Positions 1 through 9,230 of a stretch of 9,230 nucleotides of DNA are shown one piece after another. Both the position numbers and the translations under genes were made by a program. This DNA comes from a virus. Lineage: Duplodnaviria > Heunggongvirae > Uroviricota > Caudoviricetes. The stretch lies in IMG/VR virus record IMGVR_UViG_2582580966_000002, one strand, 5' to 3'. Under the pieces are notes generated by a model. It was not told the DNA's origin. It ran no database searches and worked only from the letters and a program-made list of their open reading frames with translations. Positions within the stretch are counted from its first letter, which is position 1. Every line of letters begins with the position of its first letter.

Positions 1-12
1 CCATGACCTCCT

Positions 13-1296
13 CTATGATATGCGCTGAAATAATCCTGCCTGTCTGATACCCGGAGATGATGTCCATAGCATCGGACCACATGCACGCCACGTGCCCGGT
101 AAACGGGTCTCCCCCACATTACCGGAAGCAACCAGGGGAGTACCATCCGAAAGGCAACATGCAGACAGTGATGAGCCGGCAATGGCTGAGCCCGGTGCCA
201 TATCCCCCGAATAACTCGTCGCATAATATGCCGCAAGGACAAAAGAACCGACACCAAACAGTCCGCTGTCAGGACTTCCTGACGGTCCCTGAGGTCCTGC
301 CGGACCTGCGGCTCCCGTATCTCCTTTTGGCCCCTGAGGCCCTGCCTGACCTGCGGCTCCCGTATCCCCTTTTGGCCCCTGTGGTCCTGCCGGGCCTGCA
401 GCTCCCGTATCTCCCTTTGGCCCCTGAGGTCCTGCCGGACCTGCGGCTCCCGTATCTCCTTTTGGCCCCTGAGGTCCTGCCGGACCTGCGGCTCCCGTAT
501 CTCCTTTTGGCCCCTGAGGTCCTGCCGGGCCTGCAGCTCCCGTATCTCCCTTTGGCCCCTGAGGTCCTGCCGGACCTGCGGCTCCCGTATCTCCTTTTGG
601 CCCCTGAGGCCCTGCCTGACCTGCGGCTCCCGTATCCCCTTTTGGCCCCTGAGGCCCTGCCGGGCCTGCGGCTCCCGTATCCCCTTTTGGCCCCTGAAGC
701 CCTGCCGGGCCTGTATCCCCCTTGTCGCCCTTCGGTCCCAGTGGTCCGCCCGGATCGCCCTGCTCACCTTTCGGACCTGTATCCCCCTTATCGCCCTTGT
801 CACCTTTATCCCCTTTCGGCCCCGGTGGCCCTGCCGGGCCTGTATCGCCCTTGTCCCCCTTCTGTCCCTGTGGACCAGTTGCTCCGGTGTCGCCTTTCAG
901 TCCCTGTGGCCCCACGGCAGTTTCGGCTTTCTCAGCAGCTTCTCGCGCCCTGCGCACAGCCTCATCCGCCGCCGCTTCCAGCTTCTTCAGTGCATCAGGA
1001 TAATACGCTGCATCCGTTTCACGGAGCAGAAAGGCATTCAGGGTGCCCGGTTCGTCGTCGGCCATGACATCAATCTCGCCGGCGCATGCCGGCTGACGAC
1101 CTTCCACGCACAAGGTCACACGATAACGCCCCGGCTCAACCTGCATGCTGTAACTGCCCGTTTCGCCTGGCTGGTGCTCTGCCACCGTGGTGACTATCAC
1201 CGTCTCACTCGTTCGCGTGGCTTTCAGCTCTATGGTGCAGTCCGGTACCGGTTTTCCTGTACCATCCTTCAGCACACCTGAAATCTGTACTGACAT
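13..1296 (-). CDS. stf: Side tail fibre protein: lambda Stf-like N-terminal domain (~110 aa), collagen-like Gly-X-Y repeat region (~210 aa), short C-terminal domain (~90 aa)
   Basis: The N-terminus [43 protein letters not shown]... resembles lambda Stf ([26 protein letters not shown]...). It is followed by uninterrupted GXY triplets ([15 protein letters not shown]...). ATG at 1296-1294 verified; stop TAG at 13-15. Confidence 0.8.
286..690. repeat. Tandem array of nine 45-bp repeats (consensus cccctgaggtcctgccggacctgcggctcccgtatctccttttgg), each encoding a 15-aa collagen-like unit of the tail fibre
   Basis: Copies at 286, 331, 376, 421, 466, 511, 556, 601 and 646, read directly from the sequence. 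Copies 4, 5 and 7 are identical; copy 2 equals copy 8; copies 3 and 6 differ from each other by one base. More degenerate 9-bp Gly-X-Y periodicity continues to about 910. Confidence 0.95.
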
Positions 1297-2069
1297 ATTC
1301 CCCCCACAAAAAAGCCCACCAGAACCGGCGGGCTGTCATAACTCTGTGTTACCTGGCTATGGTAGTTCACCGTCATCTGCTGACCACCAAACTGCTCCGC
1401 ATCCACCTGCATCCCCACAATGGCCGTGTTCGGGTAGCACTGTTTCACATCGATGATTTCGGTGTATGACGACCACAGCGTTCTGTTCTGCAGCTGGTCC
1501 GTGGTGCTGTCCGCCGTCTCCCTGACCATCCGGATGTTAAAGGGGCGGGGAGGCAGATTATCCAGAATCACCGAGGCCAGGAACTGTGAGGTGGTCTTGC
1601 CGTTAATGGTGACATCCTTTTCTGTCACCCAGTTACCGTTACGCTGTAACTGAATCAGCAGACGGACAGAGGACGGATTACGGTCACCCTTTGACGTGGT
1701 CTCCACCAGTGACTGCACCCCGAAGGTCACCCGCAGGCGGTCAATGTTCGCTGACGTAATGGTGCGTGTTACCGGTTTTGCCCTGGTCACTTCGACACCC
1801 AGTACAGTTTCAGAGCCGGAGGACTCAAAGCCTTCCGGTGGTGTCTGCTCCTGCTCCCCGGCACGCCAGACCGCGGTCACACCGTGTATCACGGGATTAC
1901 CGTCCGTGTCCGTCAGCGGGGTTTTGTTCACCAGAATACTCTGCAGGCTTTTCACCGGGCCTTCTATCGGTCCCTCACCAATCGCATCAATCACGCTCAT
2001 CATCTGCGTGGATTTGAGATTGTCTTTCGCCTCACGAGGCGTGTGTGCCTTACCGCCACCTTTTCCCAT
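1269..2069 (-). pseudogene. J: Tail tip / host-specificity protein gpJ, N-terminal fragment only (~237 native codons of ~1130), then 29 codons of non-J sequence
   Basis: MGKGGGKAHTPREAKDNLKSTQMMSVIDAIGEGPIEGP...NLPPRPFNIRM...CYPNTAIVGMQVDAEQFGGQQ matches the lambda gpJ N-terminus. The remaining reading frame crosses the stf terminator and start codon and stops at 1269-1271. The ATG at 2069 is preceded by GGGAAGG. Confidence 0.85.
1308..1334 (-). terminator. Intrinsic terminator immediately upstream of the stf start (minus-strand stem AGCCCGCC/GGTGGGCT, loop GGTTCT, T6 tract)
   Basis: Minus-strand sequence agcccgccggttctggtgggctttttt read off the reverse complement of 1308-1334. The stem is 8 bp including one G-U pair. 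It is followed by GTGGGGGGAAT and the stf ATG. Confidence 0.55.
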
Positions 2070-2172
2070 ACAGCCTTCCCCTGAATAAATTAACCGCCAC
2101 TTGCCATTCCGTACAGAAGTCGGATATCCTTCGCCCGAAAAGCATGAAACACATTTCTGCCATGCTAAAGAG

Positions 2173-2202
2173 AAACCCCGGTATCAGCAGATACCGGGGT
2201 TT
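2173..2202. terminator. Bidirectional intrinsic terminator-like hairpin: perfect 12-bp stem AAACCCCGGTAT/ATACCGGGGTTT, 6-nt loop CAGCAG
   Basis: Perfect inverted repeat at 2173-2184 and 2191-2202. It is followed by TCTTTC on the plus strand and by TTTCTCTTT on the minus strand, so it could terminate in both directions. Confidence 0.6.
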
Positions 2203-2274
2203 TCTTTCATGCCCACCGATAATCCTGTTGGTTAAAACCGGTAATGGCATAAAAATTCTGAATATCTTCACATT

Positions 2275-2302
2275 TTCACAAACTGACCGTGGCGCGTATA
2301 AT
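2275..2302 (+). promoter_or_regulatory. Sigma70-type promoter: -35 TTCACA (2275-2280), 16-bp spacer, -10 TATAAT (2297-2302); AT-rich UP-like tract upstream (2246-2268)
   Basis: Hexamers read directly from the sequence: a perfect consensus -10 and a 5/6 match at -35. Predicted transcription start around 2309-2311. Confidence 0.6.
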
Positions 2303-2308
2303 TTCTCT

Positions 2309-2405
2309 GCGTTAATTTTTTTTTCGTGATATAAGAATAATTCCTTACACTTAATCTTCGTAACTCTCCCGCAGTTCCTGTCCGCGATCACTGCGGGATT
2401 TTTTT
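2309..2405 (+). ncRNA. Candidate small non-coding RNA (~95 nt) from the promoter at 2275-2302 to the terminator at 2367-2405
   Basis: Strong promoter and intrinsic terminator about 100 bp apart on the same strand. The interval has no plausible ORF (only GTG-ATA-TAA), is AU-rich, and ends in a hairpin plus U-tail, as Hfq-dependent sRNAs typically do. It runs opposite to all flanking phage genes. Confidence 0.45.
2367..2405 (+). terminator. Intrinsic terminator: 9-bp perfect stem TCCCGCAGT/ACTGCGGGA (2367-2375 / 2390-2398), 14-nt loop, T7 tract 2399-2405
   Basis: Read directly from the sequence. The T-tract is only on the plus-strand side, so it is unidirectional. The loop is longer than in typical terminators. 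Confidence 0.6.
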
Positions 2406-2412
2406 ATTCTTT

Positions 2413-3042
2413 TTACCCCTGCCGCCCGATAACCACGACCTTTCCGCCCCCGCCTTCATCACGGGTGCTGATGTCCTGGGATATACGGCGGGAGCCAACC
2501 AGCATTTCCCCGTAAGGCACCGGCATCGGGTTCCCCTGGGCAATCATGTTATCCAGCGAGGAAAAGTACGTGTTCTGTCTGCCGTTATCCGTTGCGCGGT
2601 AATCCGGTGTTTTTGCCTTCGGGGCCAGCATCTGGGCCACACCGCCCAGTATCATGCTGGCACCCAGTGAAAACAGCATCGTGGTGGCAGAAAAACCACC
2701 GGCACTCAGGGCTGTACCCCATAACGCCATCGAGCCTCCGGCCGTGAAGAAAGAGCCCACGATGGCTGCCGCCCCCAACACAATCTGCAGTCCACCCTTT
2801 CCGGCCCCGGCCAGTCGCGGCACAATGTGGATGACCGTTCCCTCACCCAGCTGTTCGTGAAGGCGGGCGTACACCACCTCCGGTGCCGTGTCTTCACCGG
2901 CAATACGTATCTGGTACCAGCCTTCGTTCATCTGAAGGCGAAAGCCCGGCATCTGCATCGACAGGGCGCGAATGGCTTCCGCTGCCGTGTTCACATACAG
3001 GCTGAGGCGGCGGCCAAATCGTTGTAAATCCCCGTGGTTGCC
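2413..3042 (-). pseudogene. I: Tail assembly protein gpI lacking its native N-terminus (~20 codons) and start codon
   Basis: ORF 2413..3078: ...GDLQRFGRRLSLYVNTAAEAIRAL...QNTYFSSLDNMIAQGN...GGGKVVVIGRQG matches lambda gpI from about residue 21 to the end. The first 15 residues of the track ORF (MMVEAVISGSTVGNH) are FII DNA in another frame. Confidence 0.85.
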
Positions 3043-3364
3043 CACGGTTGAGCCAGAGATAACAGCTTCCACCATCATCCGGCGAAACCCGGTCTATCCA
3101 GAAGTTTTCCTCACCGATGGTCAGCGTGTCTCCACGCCGCAGTTGCCGCACATCATCAGTCCGGACAAACAGGGACGGGCTGGAGCCTTCAACGCGCACG
3201 CCCTGTCCGGCATAGCTGATATTTTCAGGGTCATCAAAAACACCACGTATTACTGCGCCGGACTGCTCACCGGATGTCATGGTGGCTGACGTTCCCATGT
3301 ACCCGCGTATCGTTTCATCGGCGCGGGCAATGGCAGCATCGAACAGGTTATCGAAATCAGCCAC
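2894..3364 (-). pseudogene. FII: Head-tail connector gpFII with altered C-terminus: native residues 1 to ~108, then read-through into I-derived DNA in the wrong frame (48 foreign residues)
   Basis: ORF begins MADFDNLFDAAIARADETIRGYMGTSAT...DRVSPDDGGSCYLWLNRG, matching lambda gpFII (117 aa) up to about residue 108; the following sequence QPRGFTTIWPPPQPV... is not FII. Junction lies near 3037-3042. Confidence 0.8.
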
Positions 3365-3375
3365 AGCGCCTCCCG

Positions 3376-3771
3376 TTATTGCATTCTGGCCAGGCCGCGC
3401 TCTGTCATTTCAGCTGCCACACCGGCAGAGACACGGAACGCCGTTCCCGGCAGCACAAATGCCACAGTGTCATCCCGCGTGGCGTGAAGTGCATCAGTAT
3501 GCAGCGTCACCAGTGCCACGACCGTGACCAGAGCAGCCGTATCAATCACGGTATCCGGCTGCGCTGATACCACCTCATTTTCATGTCCGGTCAGCGCATT
3601 TTCCGGGCTGACAGATGTGTCCTGACCGGCAGCGTCATCCGTGTCATCAAGCTCCTCTTCCAGCTCTGCCACACGGAGCACCAGTTCTTCTTTCGTCCCC
3701 GTCAGGCTGACATCACGGTTCAGTTGCTCACCCAGCACCTGAAGACGGGCAATCAGTTCATCTTTCGTCAT
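3376..3771 (-). CDS. FI: DNA packaging / head completion protein gpFI
   Basis: Within ORF 3376..3810, MTKDELIARLQVLGEQLNRDVSLTGTKEEL...AAEMTERGLARMQ matches lambda gpFI; the start is the Met at residue 14 of the track ORF. Confidence 0.88.
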   Translation of the reverse strand: MTKDELIARLQVLGEQLNRDVSLTGTKEELVLRVAELEEELDDTDDAAGQDTSVSPENALTGHENEVVSAQPDTVIDTAALVTVVALVTLHTDALHATRDDTVAFVLPGTAFRVSAGVAAEMTERGLARMQ

Positions 3772-3812: not shown

Positions 3813-4838
3813 TTACGCCAGTTGTACGGACACGAACGCATCAGGATCAGCCAGCAGCATCAGCGGTGCTGACTGAATCATGGTGAACTCACGCGCCGGA
3901 TCGCCGGTGGTCACCCAGTTTTTCGGGTAGCGGGCAGAGGCGTTAATACCTTCGCGCTGTGCGTCCGCATCCTGAATGCAGCCATAGGTGCGCAGACCGC
4001 GTGCCTGAGTGTTCCCCAGCACCATCGTGTTGTCCGGCAGGAAGTTCTTTTTGACGTCGTTTTCCACGTACTGTCCGGAATACACGACGATCGCCGTATC
4101 GCCATACATCCCCTTATAGGACACCGCTTCGCCCAGGTCTTTTACCGCTGTCTCCAGCTCGGAATTAGAGCCGCGACGGGTATCCAGCTTCTCCTTGACG
4201 GCTTTGAAGGAACGGAACAGCGCCCAGCCTTTCGGATCAAACACGATGATATTCACCACGCCGCTGGCGTTCAGCGCGTAGGCTTCGATATCGTCGGTCG
4301 GGTCATACGTGGACTTGTCACGCTTGCTCCACTCCGTGCCGCCGGACTGCGTGATGTTGTTCGCCGCACTGCGGCCCATATCCACCTCAACCGGATCGAA
4401 GGCTTCACCGGTCATGGTGTATTTGCCCTTGAGCACGGCAGAAACGGCCTGCATCTCTTCGACCTGAGCAATGGCCAGCTCTTCGTCACGCATGTTCTGC
4501 ATGATGATGCGACGGCGGCGGTAAGTCGGGTCCGCCAGATTCTGCGGATCTTCATCCGGCAGGCGACGCAGGGTCATCTGCGGATTCACTTCATGCTTGG
4601 GTTTGACATATCCCGGCGTAAATTCAGAGGTGGAGCCGCCACGGGAACGGATAACCTCACCGGAAACAATCGGCGAAACGTACAGCGCCATGTTTACCAG
4701 TCCCGGAATTTGTGAGAGATAGACTTTCTCCGTAGTGAAGGGATAGCTCTCACGGAAAAAGAGACGCAGAAACAGCGGATCAAACTTAAATTTCTGCTCA
4801 TTTGCCGCCAGCAGCTGGGCGGTTGTGTACATCGACAT
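3813..4838 (-). CDS. E: Major capsid protein gpE
   Basis: 341-aa ORF MSMYTTAQLLAANEQKFKFDPLFLRLFFRESYPF...DAFVSVQLA matches lambda gpE in length and sequence; ATG at 4838-4836 verified. Confidence 0.93.
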   Translation of the reverse strand: MSMYTTAQLLAANEQKFKFDPLFLRLFFRESYPFTTEKVYLSQIPGLVNMALYVSPIVSGEVIRSRGGSTSEFTPGYVKPKHEVNPQMTLRRLPDEDPQNLADPTYRRRRIIMQNMRDEELAIAQVEEMQAVSAVLKGKYTMTGEAFDPVEVDMGRSAANNITQSGGTEWSKRDKSTYDPTDDIEAYALNASGVVNIIVFDPKGWALFRSFKAVKEKLDTRRGSNSELETAVKDLGEAVSYKGMYGDTAIVVYSGQYVENDVKKNFLPDNTMVLGNTQARGLRTYGCIQDADAQREGINASARYPKNWVTTGDPAREFTMIQSAPLMLLADPDAFVSVQLA

Positions 4839-6555: not shown

Positions 6556-7708
6556 TCTTCTCCTCCTCTGTTGATTGTCGCAGTCCGGATTCAAATGCCG
6601 CAGCCGCCCAGGCGGGCGGTTTAAGACCGGCTGCACGGCGCTCCATCGTTTCACGGACCTGCTGGGCAAAAATTTCCTGATAGTCGTCACCGCGTTTTGC
6701 GCACTCTTTCTCGTAGGTACTCAGTCCGGCTTCTATCAGCATCACCGCTTCCTGTACTTCTTTCAGACCATCGATGGCCATACGACCGGAGCCTATCCAG
6801 TCACAGTTCCCCCAGGCGCTGCGGGCTTCCTGAAAGCTGAAACGCGCTTTTGAAGGTAACGTCACCACGCGGCGAACGATGGCCTCTTCCAGCCAGCACA
6901 GAAACATCTGGCTCGCCTGACGGGATGCGACGAATTTTCGCCGCCCCATAAAGTACGCCCACGACTCGTTCGCACTGGCCCGTGCCGTGGAATAGCTCAT
7001 CTGGGCGTAATTCCGGGAAAGCTGCTCATACGAGACACCCAGCCCGGCAGCGATATACCGCAACAGTGACTGCTCAAACACGGAGTAGCCGTTATCCGTA
7101 TCCTGAGCCGTCTGCAGGTTCAGTGAGTCACCCGGCATCAGGTGCGGCACTTTTGCGCCTCCCAGCCGAACCGGTGCTGCGGCGTAATACGCGGCAATTT
7201 CACCAATCCAGCCGGTCAGCTTGTCCCGCTGCTCCTGACTGTTCGCGCCCAGAATAAAATCCATCGCTGACTGCGTATCCAGCTCACTCTCAATGGTGGC
7301 GGCATACATCGCCTTCACAATGGCGCTCTGCAGCTGCGTGTTCTGCAGCGTGTCGAGCATCTTCATCTGCTCCATCACGCTGTAAAACACATTTGCACCG
7401 CGGGTCTGCCCGTCCTCCACGGGTTCAAAAACGTGAATGAACGAGGCGCGCCCGCCGGGTAACTCACGGGGTATCCATGTCCATTTCTGCGGCATCCAGC
7501 CAGGATAGCCGTCCTCGCTGACGTAATATCCCAGCGCCGCACCGCTGTCATTAATCTGCACACCGGCACGGCAGTTCCGGCTGTCGCCGGTATTGTTCGG
7601 GTTGCTGATGCGCTTCGGGCTGACCATCCGGAACTGTGTCCGGAAAAGCCACGACGGACTGGTATCCCAGGTGGCCTGAACGAACAGTTCACCGTTAAAG
7701 GCGTGCAT
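6536..7708 (-). pseudogene. B: Portal protein gpB, N-terminally truncated (~140 codons missing; remnant begins at MHAFNGELFVQATWDT)
   Basis: ORF 6536..7732 (the track start is a TTG; first ATG at 7708-7706). The protein from MHAFNGELFV to ...STEEEKSDSRAA matches the C-terminal ~390 residues of lambda gpB (533 aa). It lacks its own start region and ribosome-binding site, and lies in the same frame as A immediately after the A stop codon. Confidence 0.85.
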
Positions 7709-7751
7709 GCAGTGCCGCACGGGCAGCGGCAAGTTCTTCCTGTCGCGTCAT
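7695..7751 (-). pseudogene. W: Head-tail joining gene W remnant: first 15 codons only ([15 protein letters not shown]), then 3 foreign codons and TAA
   Basis: Hand translation of the minus strand from ATG 7751-7749 gives [18 protein letters not shown]-stop. The first 15 residues equal the lambda gpW N-terminus ([21 protein letters not shown]...); sequence after codon 15 is B-derived, read out of frame. Confidence 0.8.
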
Positions 7752-9230
7752 TCATCCTCTCCGGATAAGGCACGGGCGTAATCTGCCAGTGTTTTCTTGT
7801 TGGTTGCTGCACCATCCTCTTCCTTCAGGCTCGCCAGCAGTGCACTGAGATCCAGCTGCCAGCGGGAAATACTGATGCGCAGCGCCGCCAGCGCATAAAC
7901 GAAGCAGTCGAGCGCCTCATTGCGTCGTTTTTTGCTGTCCCACAGTATTTTTTTCCTGCCATCCACCCATTTTTCGACCTGCTCTTCAGCCGTCAGCTGC
8001 TGCGCTTCGGTCAGATCAAAAATATCCGGGTTATTCGGGAAGTGAACGGCACCGGGAAGCGGTTCATCCCCTTCCGGCGTCAGTGTGAAGCGGTTATAAA
8101 TCTGCTCTTTCGCGGTATCCGTACCGATTTCGGTAAGGTAAACCCCGTTTTTGTTTCGCTTACGTGGCATGCTGGCCACCGGCTTTCCGTAGACGGATGC
8201 CCCTTTAATGGGGATCCCCCGGAACAGCCCATGTTTTTTCGAGCGTTCATACACGATGGTCGGGTCAATCCCGCCAGTATCCCAGCAGATACGGGATACC
8301 GACATTTCTGCACCATTCCGGCGGGTATAGGTTTTATTGATGGCCTCATCCACACGCAGCAGCGTCTGTTCATCGTCGTGGCGGCCCATAATAATCTGCC
8401 GATCAATCAGCCAGCTTTCCTCACCCGGCCCCCATCCCCATACGCGCATTTCGTAGCGATCCAGCTGGGAGTCGATACCGGCGGTCAGGTAAGCCACACG
8501 GTCAGGAACGGGCGCTGAATAATGCTCTTTCCGCTCTGCCATCACTTCAGCATCCGGACGTTCGCCAATTTTCGCCTCCCACGTCTCACCGAGCGTGGTG
8601 TTTACGAAGGTTTTACGTTTTCCCGTATCCCCTTTCGTTTTCATCCAGTCTTTGACAATCTGCACCCAGGTGGTGAACGGGCTGTACGCTGTCCAGATGT
8701 GAAAGGTCACACTGTCAGGTGGCTCAATCTCTTCACCGGATGACGAAAACCAGAGAATGCCATCACGGGTCCAGATCCCGGTCTTTTCGCAGATATAACG
8801 GGCATCAGTAAAGTCCAGCTCCTGCTGGCAGATGACGCAGGCATTATGCTCGCAGAGATAAAACACGCTGGAGGGGTCATCCGGCGTCCATTTGAGGCCA
8901 AACGGCGTCTCTTTGTCGCCAAATTTAAGATACTGCTCCTCCCCGCAGTGCGGGCAGGCAACATGAAAACGCATAAAATGCGGGGATTCACTGGCTGCAC
9001 GCTCAATCTGGCAGGTGCCTCTCACTTTGGGCGTGGAGCCACGGATGGACTTTGGCCAGACCGAGCCTTCAATACGCTTATCGCCCAGGAACGTCGGAGA
9101 GCCTTCCTGTTCAATATCCTCATCAAAGGCAGCAAGTTCATCATACCCCGCCACATCCACTGACTTTTCACGGTAGTTTTTTGCCGCTTTACCGCCCAGG
9201 CACCAGAAGCCACGACCATTGGAAAAACGC
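7748..9230 (-). CDS. A: Terminase large subunit gpA, 3' portion (N-terminal ~150 codons lie beyond the window edge)
   Basis: ORF 7748..9160 and its open upstream extension to the window edge (frame hand-translated to ...RFSNGRGFWCLGGKAAKNYREKS before the GTG at 9160). The C-terminus ...KKTLADYARALSGEDE matches lambda gpA as I recall it. Stop TGA at 7748-7750 overlaps the W ATG (7749-7751) as in lambda. Confidence 0.9.
   Translation of the reverse strand, partial: RFSNGRGFWCLGGKAAKNYREKSVDVAGYDELAAFDEDIEQEGSPTFLGDKRIEGSVWPKSIRGSTPKVRGTCQIERAASESPHFMRFHVACPHCGEEQYLKFGDKETPFGLKWTPDDPSSVFYLCEHNACVICQQELDFTDARYICEKTGIWTRDGILWFSSSGEEIEPPDSVTFHIWTAYSPFTTWVQIVKDWMKTKGDTGKRKTFVNTTLGETWEAKIGERPDAEVMAERKEHYSAPVPDRVAYLTAGIDSQLDRYEMRVWGWGPGEESWLIDRQIIMGRHDDEQTLLRVDEAINKTYTRRNGAEMSVSRICWDTGGIDPTIVYERSKKHGLFRGIPIKGASVYGKPVASMPRKRNKNGVYLTEIGTDTAKEQIYNRFTLTPEGDEPLPGAVHFPNNPDIFDLTEAQQLTAEEQVEKWVDGRKKILWDSKKRRNEALDCFVYALAALRISISRWQLDLSALLASLKEEDGAATNKKTLADYARALSGEDE

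Follow-up and report, generated by a model that had tools for sequence, protein, structure and literature searches.

A probable deletion scar between the tail-tip gene J and the side tail fibre gene stf in a defective lambdoid prophage of Escherichia coli

The join between a shortened tail-tip gene J and the side tail fibre gene stf described here was most probably (probability about 0.9) left by a deletion in a defective lambdoid prophage of a commensal E. coli. The pattern is an ordinary and already known one, the early stage of a prophage decaying through deletions. The stretch of DNA analysed (the window) is the whole 9,230-base contig JMGU01000151.1 of the draft E. coli assembly GCA_000687025.1, taken in reversed orientation. 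It ends within gene A, while a longer sister contig, L005, ends within Nu1. All late genes of the prophage in the window lie on the minus strand, in a lambda-like late operon (Table 1). The remnant open reading frame of J is referred to below as J′.

BLASTP aligned J′ residues 1–237 with residues 1–237 of lambda J at 79% identity (E = 1e-133), and no lambda J match was found beyond ...QFGGQQMTVNYH. Alignment to lambda J had been proposed in the first-pass annotation as the way to place the breakpoint, and the match is indeed confined to these residues. Against the 1157-residue J of E. coli S1-CAM-01-A, J′ is colinear and near-identical up to ...QFGGQQMTVNYH237, past which BLASTP gives merely a gapped chance match; the solved lambda gpJ chain (PDB 8iyk_J) is matched over residues 1–238. 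No frameshift or stop interrupts the 237 J-derived codons, and every assembly has a gene call for the ORF. The last 29 of the 266 codons come from the lom–stf spacer and from stf read out of frame, and the frame closes 25 nt within stf. As judged from the alignments, the J homology breakpoints are strong and do not reflect chance resemblance.

At the DNA level, megablast against complete E. coli genomes showed J homology stopping at window position 1358 and lom–stf spacer homology beginning at 1359. In a three-way alignment, with a slash at the junction, the J side reads ...AACTACCATA/TCCGCGG and the lom side ...TTCTGATTA/GCC..., the end of lom being ...AAATTCTGATTA/GCCAGG; the window itself reads ...AACTACCATAGCCAGG. 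The crossover falls in a 2-bp TA microhomology, 2 nt beyond the lom stop codon. Relatives with an uninterrupted tail-tip region carry full-length J, then Ail/Lom, then stf. Compared with S1-CAM-01-A, the lost segment comprises J codons 238–1157 (920 codons) and the whole 199-codon lom; compared with EC100, whose J is shorter, 3,348 bp are missing. The first-pass annotation had J cut after about 237 codons and joined to the terminator and stf start, with some 900 J codons and lom absent. BLASTP and DNA alignment bear out its coordinates and its description alike.

Table 1. Positions of the prophage features and deletion junctions in the 9,230-base window.
Feature	Position	Strand	Details
stf, side tail fibre	13..1296	minus	427 aa, ORF intact; ATG at 1296-1294
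45-bp tandem repeat	287..713		9.5 copies; encodes the collagen-like G-X-Y units of stf
J′ remnant ORF	1269-2069	minus	266 aa
J′ stop codon	1271-1269	minus	TGA
J′ codons 238-266	1359-1272	minus	lom–stf spacer and out-of-frame stf
J′ codons 1-237	2069-1359	minus	origin in tail-tip gene J
Retained native lom–stf spacer	1297..1357	minus	starts 2 nt past the would-be lom stop; 64-nt spacer
G-run	1305-1300	minus	GGGGGG; Shine-Dalgarno-like, 3 nt before the stf ATG
T-run	1313-1308	minus	TTTTTT; first T closes the stem; followed by GT at 1307-1306
Intrinsic-terminator-like hairpin	1334-1313	minus	AGCCCGCCG-GTTC-TGGTGGGCT
J/lom deletion junction	1358..1359		microhomology TA, common to both sides; J codon 238 first base to 2 nt past lom stop; 3,432 bp missing
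Native I–J spacer	2070..2412		343 bp
I–J spacer hairpin	about 2165-2200		strong, bidirectional, terminator-like; -32 kcal/mol, z -6.4
K end and I	2413-2994	minus	
FII′	2894-3364	minus	
FII-to-K junction	3034..3036		microhomology CAC; FII codon 111 to K codon 233; 6,969 bp missing
Major capsid E, then FI	3813-4838 (E)	minus	
W/B junction	7706..7709		microhomology CATG; W codon 16 to portal gene B codon 143; 589 bp missing
Terminase A, truncated portal gene, protease C, D		minus	late operon

The domain content of J′ is correspondingly small. Pfam assigned it a single family, FNIII-A_GpJ (PF24801; residues 86–207, E = 3.8e-41), that is, one of the six gpJ domain families, whereas the full-length relative gives all six (FNIII-A, Phage-tail_3, Ig_J, Ig_J_second, Phage_Tail_Tip and Ig_GpJ_C) together with a sub-threshold Y_Y_Y match. 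PF13550, PF24421 and PF24489, which correspond to hub domains HDIII/HDIV (Phage-tail_3) and to the FNIII-1/FNIII-2 Ig domains, together closing the tail tip, are absent from J′ and present in the full-length relative, and the same holds for PF09327 and PF12421 (central fibre and C-terminal receptor-binding domain) in comparison with the 1157-residue protein. Lambda gpJ is ordered HDII, HDII-insertion, HDIII, HDIV, FNIII-1, FNIII-2, central fibre and receptor-binding domain, with the Ig-like insertion occupying residues 72–215 within HDII (PMC10721106). J′ contains the gpJ N-terminal arrangement of an HDII region with an inserted FNIII-A Ig-like domain, and ends shortly past that insertion. It is probably a gene fragment from the gpJ family and no functional member of it: a pseudogene that retains the HDII start and FNIII-A only and would be unable to build a tail tip. 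This assignment follows also from the loss of Z, U, V, G, T, H, M and L and of all but the last codons of K, given which no tail can be built. The 266-residue “host specificity J domain protein” of these assemblies should accordingly be annotated as a fragment of a pseudogene, and the whole element should be recorded as defective.

A near-intact copy of the same prophage was found in E. coli S1-CAM-01-A (NZ_CP145714.1, 2,728–2,750 kb), adjoining potB. Its genes run Nu1, A, W, B, C, D, E, FI, FII, Z, U, V, G, T, H, M, L, K and I, followed by the 343-bp spacer (99.7% identity), J of 1157 residues, lom of 199 residues, stf, a DUF4376 gene and a YkgJ-family gene; the sole annotated lesion is a frameshift in the protease gene C. 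From A to J codon 237 the head–tail cluster of the window is 97.3–99.8% identical to it. The S1-CAM-01-A prophage differs in keeping W, B, the FII–K segment, full-length J and lom, and in an stf allele that is only about 90% identical. Since the YkgJ-potB-potA-pepT downstream flank is common to S1-CAM-01-A and to the sister contig L003, the remnant and the S1-CAM-01-A prophage appear to be inserted at one and the same place in the chromosome.

BLAST of the window against this copy returned five colinear blocks separated by four breaks, of which one falls inside the repeat-rich, diverged body of stf and the other three are clean deletion junctions. Microhomology is present at all three: TA (2 bp) at J/lom, CAC (3 bp) at FII-to-K and CATG (4 bp) at W/B. 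The FII-to-K deletion took Z, U, V, G, T, H, M and L plus most of K. With the W/B′, FII′-K′ and J′-lom deletions, and with chromosomal flanks seen in sister contigs, the element is a defective prophage; the sister strains have a fourth deletion. The surviving genes in the window show no frameshifts and no point-mutation decay.

The history that would account for these observations is a simple one. An ancestral prophage with the standard I-J-lom-stf order would have lost about 3.4 kb, starting with the first base of J codon 238 and reaching 2 nt beyond the end of lom, in one event of illegitimate recombination or replication slippage between two TA copies, a mechanism we infer from the junction. 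The J′ frame now runs through the untouched lom–stf spacer and ends 25 nt into stf, with the terminator and the stf ribosome-binding context inherited and not made by the deletion. The two further microhomology deletions, W/B and FII-to-K, show an element in decay by serial deletion that is no longer able to make heads or tails.

No sampled genome carries both flanks of the junction at 98% identity or higher within one prophage, so the exact parent is unsampled. The nearest match is NCCP15648 (99.4%) for the J side, but EC100 (98.7%) for the stf side. These differing closest relatives are what one might expect if, instead of a simple deletion, illegitimate recombination had joined two resident lambdoid prophages, one donating the J side and the other lom–stf. 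Strain 2017.17.03CC has its best J-like match in one prophage and its best stf-like match in another, and the sister contigs L003 and L004 put the remnant beside potB in one strain and beside intS/yfdC in the other, which hints at exchange between prophages. Lambdoid tail-fibre regions are mosaic anyway, however, and differing best matches need not mean two parents; the genes keep precisely the order and orientation that one prophage would have, and the intact prophage of S1-CAM-01-A has the potB flank as well. We consider a two-prophage origin unlikely, and a J pseudogene results either way.

The sequence between J′ and stf is ancestral, and this bears on the expression of stf. The spacer is identical to EC100 L001:6001-6063, from an apparently intact prophage, and aligns near-identically with lambda positions 19586–19649 (lambda sequence TGATTAGCCAGGTAACACAGTGTTATGACAGCCCGCCGGAACCGGTGGGCTTTTTTGTGGGGTGAATATG) and with PV0838. 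It contains a 9-bp stem (6 G-C pairs) with a 4-nt loop, a G+C-rich hairpin followed by a U-tract and hence a predicted intrinsic terminator. The hairpin is kept in lambda, EC100 and PV0838, the changes being in the loop or from wobble to Watson–Crick pairs. The whole 69-nt segment folds no better than shuffled controls (z = -0.89), as expected of a short local hairpin. On this comparative evidence, the hairpin is a predicted ancestral terminator downstream of lom that is now inside the J′ frame.

Lambdoid late transcripts begin at pR′ and are made terminator-resistant by Q, and intact phages cross these terminators. The first-pass annotation had suggested that upstream terminators and deletions cut stf off from late-operon read-through. 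This suggestion is not supported: the lom–stf terminator is native to the spacer, as EC100, lambda and PV0838 show, and was not brought by the deletion; the strong hairpin of the I–J spacer is native too, that spacer being present in 1,445 of 5,426 E. coli genomes; and the internal deletions do not sever stf from pR′ but bring it about 11 kb closer. The sister strains retain a Q gene 5.3 kb upstream of stf, in the same orientation, with a terminator-like site after it. In published measurements, an intrinsic terminator lost nearly all its activity once ribosomes came to within a few bases of it (PMC4824070). The hairpin has come to lie within the J′ frame, and if J′ is translated, the deletion should therefore weaken termination before stf and not strengthen it.

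The short spacing between the G-run and the ATG had also been taken as a reason to doubt efficient translation of stf. The same start context (GGGGxGAATATG) is found in lambda (GGGGTGAATATG) and in EC100 (GGGGGGAATATG), which identifies it as ancestral and as no defect of this locus. The case is a warning against taking native late-operon terminators and start contexts for lesions. A scan of minus-strand positions 1–3500, a range that reaches 2.2 kb upstream of stf, gave no sigma-70-like promoter, and on this prediction stf would not be expected to be expressed in an uninduced lysogen, as in an intact prophage. Its transcription would depend on Q-antiterminated read-through from pR′ after induction, again as in an intact phage.

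The stf gene itself has the build of a lambdoid Stf, with a prophage tail fibre N-terminal domain (PF08400, E = 1.1e-40) followed by a fibrous body of collagen repeats (E = 9e-33), downstream of J/lom. It is colinear over its full length with the 397-residue stf of EC100, a prophage that keeps full-length J and lom, with two 15-residue units in addition. Among sister strains the protein has 397, 412, 427 or 442 residues, the differences being whole 15-residue units only. A plus-strand ORF at 57–1067 was rejected as a gene, since it arises from reading the 45-bp collagen repeat on the opposite strand.

An intact stf that varies only by whole units among sister strains, together with remaining genes free of point-mutation decay, would also suit a domesticated remnant, in which J′ and/or stf-DUF4376 are kept for the benefit of the host. 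The remnant might, for instance, interfere with tail assembly when another lambdoid phage superinfects, or might store tail-fibre alleles for later recombination. Recent deletions predict intact ORFs equally well, however, in strains that are about 99.8% identical, and there is no promoter-like site upstream; we hold domestication to be very unlikely. It would be a similarly slim prospect that J′ acts as a decoy that poisons the tail-tip assembly of superinfecting lambdoid phages, or that stf-DUF4376 is expressed after induction through J′ translation disabling the lom terminator.

We next turn to the distribution of the junction. A junction-spanning query at 80% coverage or above found no place in 5,426 complete E. 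coli genomes and none in 50,697 phage records, and exact-pattern scans of GTDB species representatives and JGI metagenome contigs gave no match. The junction recurs in seven draft assemblies, all of them short-read drafts. The exact 266-residue product was found on eight contigs (seven places among the matches listed) from six NCBI draft assemblies of differently named isolates, and the strains sharing it include E. coli 3-073-06_S3_C1 and 2-011-08_S3_C2. Strains carrying the remnant are about 99.8% identical. Junction and product are also present on a Logan contig re-assembled from SRA reads, in seven samples.

Given this recurrence in separate drafts and in independently assembled read sets, the junction is a real, rare and lineage-restricted scar. 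That the window corresponds to one entire short-read contig of 9.2 kb, from a part of the prophage rich in repeats, might raise the question of an assembly chimera of J reads and stf reads, but the two sides share only 2 nt, so that an assembler has no reason to make the join and an assembly-graph artefact is not expected; moreover, the junction and the exact product recur in six NCBI assemblies and on the Logan contig. A chimera is extremely unlikely.

Scarcely credible is a naturally short, functional variant of J in which the 266-residue protein replaces the full-length one: the 237 J codons are free of frameshifts and stops and a gene is called in all assemblies, but the junction occurs in no complete genome or phage record (none of 5,426 and 50,697, respectively, a search that also answers the first-pass annotation's own proposal that intact phages with such a short J would overturn its reading), the last 29 codons stem from a conserved spacer that is non-coding and from stf in the wrong frame, only one of the six gpJ domain families is present, and with Z–K and W/B also deleted there is no tail for the protein to serve.

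As a deletion scar, the locus can be set against known systems. It shares with the lambda J-lom-stf region (NC_001416, 15505–20855) its gene order and orientation, J residues 1–237, the spacer hairpin and the GGGGxGAATATG start, and differs from it in the deletion of J from codon 238 onwards and of the whole of lom. Whereas lambda has tfa after stf, the gene next to stf here is the DUF4376 gene, and the body of stf is built of collagen-like repeats. Cryptic or defective lambdoid prophages are well known, among them Rac, Qin, DLP12, e14 and CPS-53 of K-12 and many Sp prophages of O157:H7 Sakai, in which internal deletions leave truncated structural genes next to intact tail-fibre genes. In contrast to these, the present remnant is young, with three clean microhomology deletions, ORFs that are otherwise uninterrupted and a near-intact counterpart in circulation. 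The locus thus offers a worked example of stepwise prophage decay, and its importance beyond annotation is small.

Separately, the I–J spacer was observed to contain a predicted antisense promoter–terminator unit that is conserved and unannotated. Rfam gave no match over the whole window at the gathering threshold, and in E-value mode over positions 1200–2500 returned sub-threshold noise only; a literature search with the sequence string of the unit yielded only irrelevant matches. An identity with AgvB or AsxR, sRNAs of EHEC prophages, was rejected, both being located at the pR′ moron site. The Pas sRNA was set aside as well, its preprint not describing the I–J spacer position. The complementarity of the antisense candidate to the hha ribosome-binding site is minimal. 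HnrS/EcOnc10-12, another sRNA considered for the unit, is described as residing among the late genes.

The spacer between gene I and the truncated J' ORF holds an unannotated, conserved promoter-terminator unit that runs antisense to the late operon. It contains no ORF, and an Rfam search over the window matched no family. We aligned the unit across nine sequences (70-97% identity), among them those of Stx1, Stx2a and Stx2c phages. Retained in the alignment are both promoter elements (-35 block and -10 element), the terminator stem CCCGCAG/CTGCGGG and two further blocks, AACTCCTTA and TAATCTTC; variation falls in the loop and in the middle of the unit. Judged by its sequence, the unit is a candidate sRNA gene, with a predicted transcript of ~95 nt, and it may correspond to HnrS/EcOnc10-12, a published EHEC prophage sRNA. 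Coordinates of this unit and of the other features described here are collected in the table.

Features of the prophage window and their positions
Feature	Position	Strand	Details
Promoter-terminator unit, unannotated, conserved	2262-2405	+ (antisense to late operon)	inside I-J spacer 2070-2412
Sigma-70-like promoter	2275-2302	+	TTCACA-16-TATAAT; 11/12 consensus matches
Terminator of the unit	2381-2405	+	TCCGCGATCACTGCGGG+T7; ~80 nt past the promoter
Perfect long hairpin	2165-2200	both	AAACCCCGGTATC-AGCA-GATACCGGGGTTT; T- and A-runs on its sides
FII-to-K deletion scar	3034-3036		joins FII codon 111 with K codon 233; 6,969-bp deletion; CAC microhomology
W/B deletion scar	7706-7709		joins W codon 16 with portal codon 143; 589-bp deletion; CATG microhomology
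45-bp tandem repeat	287-713		9.5 copies; encodes collagen-like part of stf

The same spacer carries a perfect long hairpin, placed in the late operon with I on one side and J on the other. Its folding energies on the two strands are -32 and -29 kcal/mol (z = -6.4 and -6.8), and because T- and A-runs flank the stem it is terminator-like in both directions. As the I-J spacer is carried by 1,445 of 5,426 complete genomes, the hairpin is native to the phage lineage.

Two further deletion scars, sized against the near-intact prophage of E. coli S1-CAM-01-A, lie elsewhere in the window, and the larger of these removed Z-U-V-G-T-H-M-L together with most of K. This FII/K junction and the J/lom junction also occur in two sister strains (draft contigs L003:1-9300 and L004:1-6600), both of which bear a fourth deletion in addition. 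There, the region past the DNA methyltransferase and tRNA cluster, downstream of Q, is joined to the major capsid gene E at window position 3986, leaving an E' of 62 aa. Downstream of a shared YkgJ-family gene the two contigs part ways, L003 continuing into potB-potA-pepT and L004 into intS-yfdC-mlaA (the argW site), which suggests either that prophages have rearranged with each other or that there is a second site of integration.

Across the sister assemblies, including the stf genes of L003, L004 and a further contig, L008, the stf product measures 397, 412, 427 or 442 aa, successive lengths differing by a single 15-aa unit. These differences reflect either real copy-number variation or collapse of the repeat in short-read assemblies. 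A 336-aa ORF at 57-1067 (+) was rejected as a gene, being merely the reverse reading of the 45-bp repeat.

The window ends directly past the stf stop (1-13) and, on the other side, within terminase gene A (9160-9230). In a longer sister contig, L005, A is complete at 641 aa, and L005 in turn breaks off within Nu1. Repeats shared by the resident lambdoid prophages are the probable sites of these breaks.
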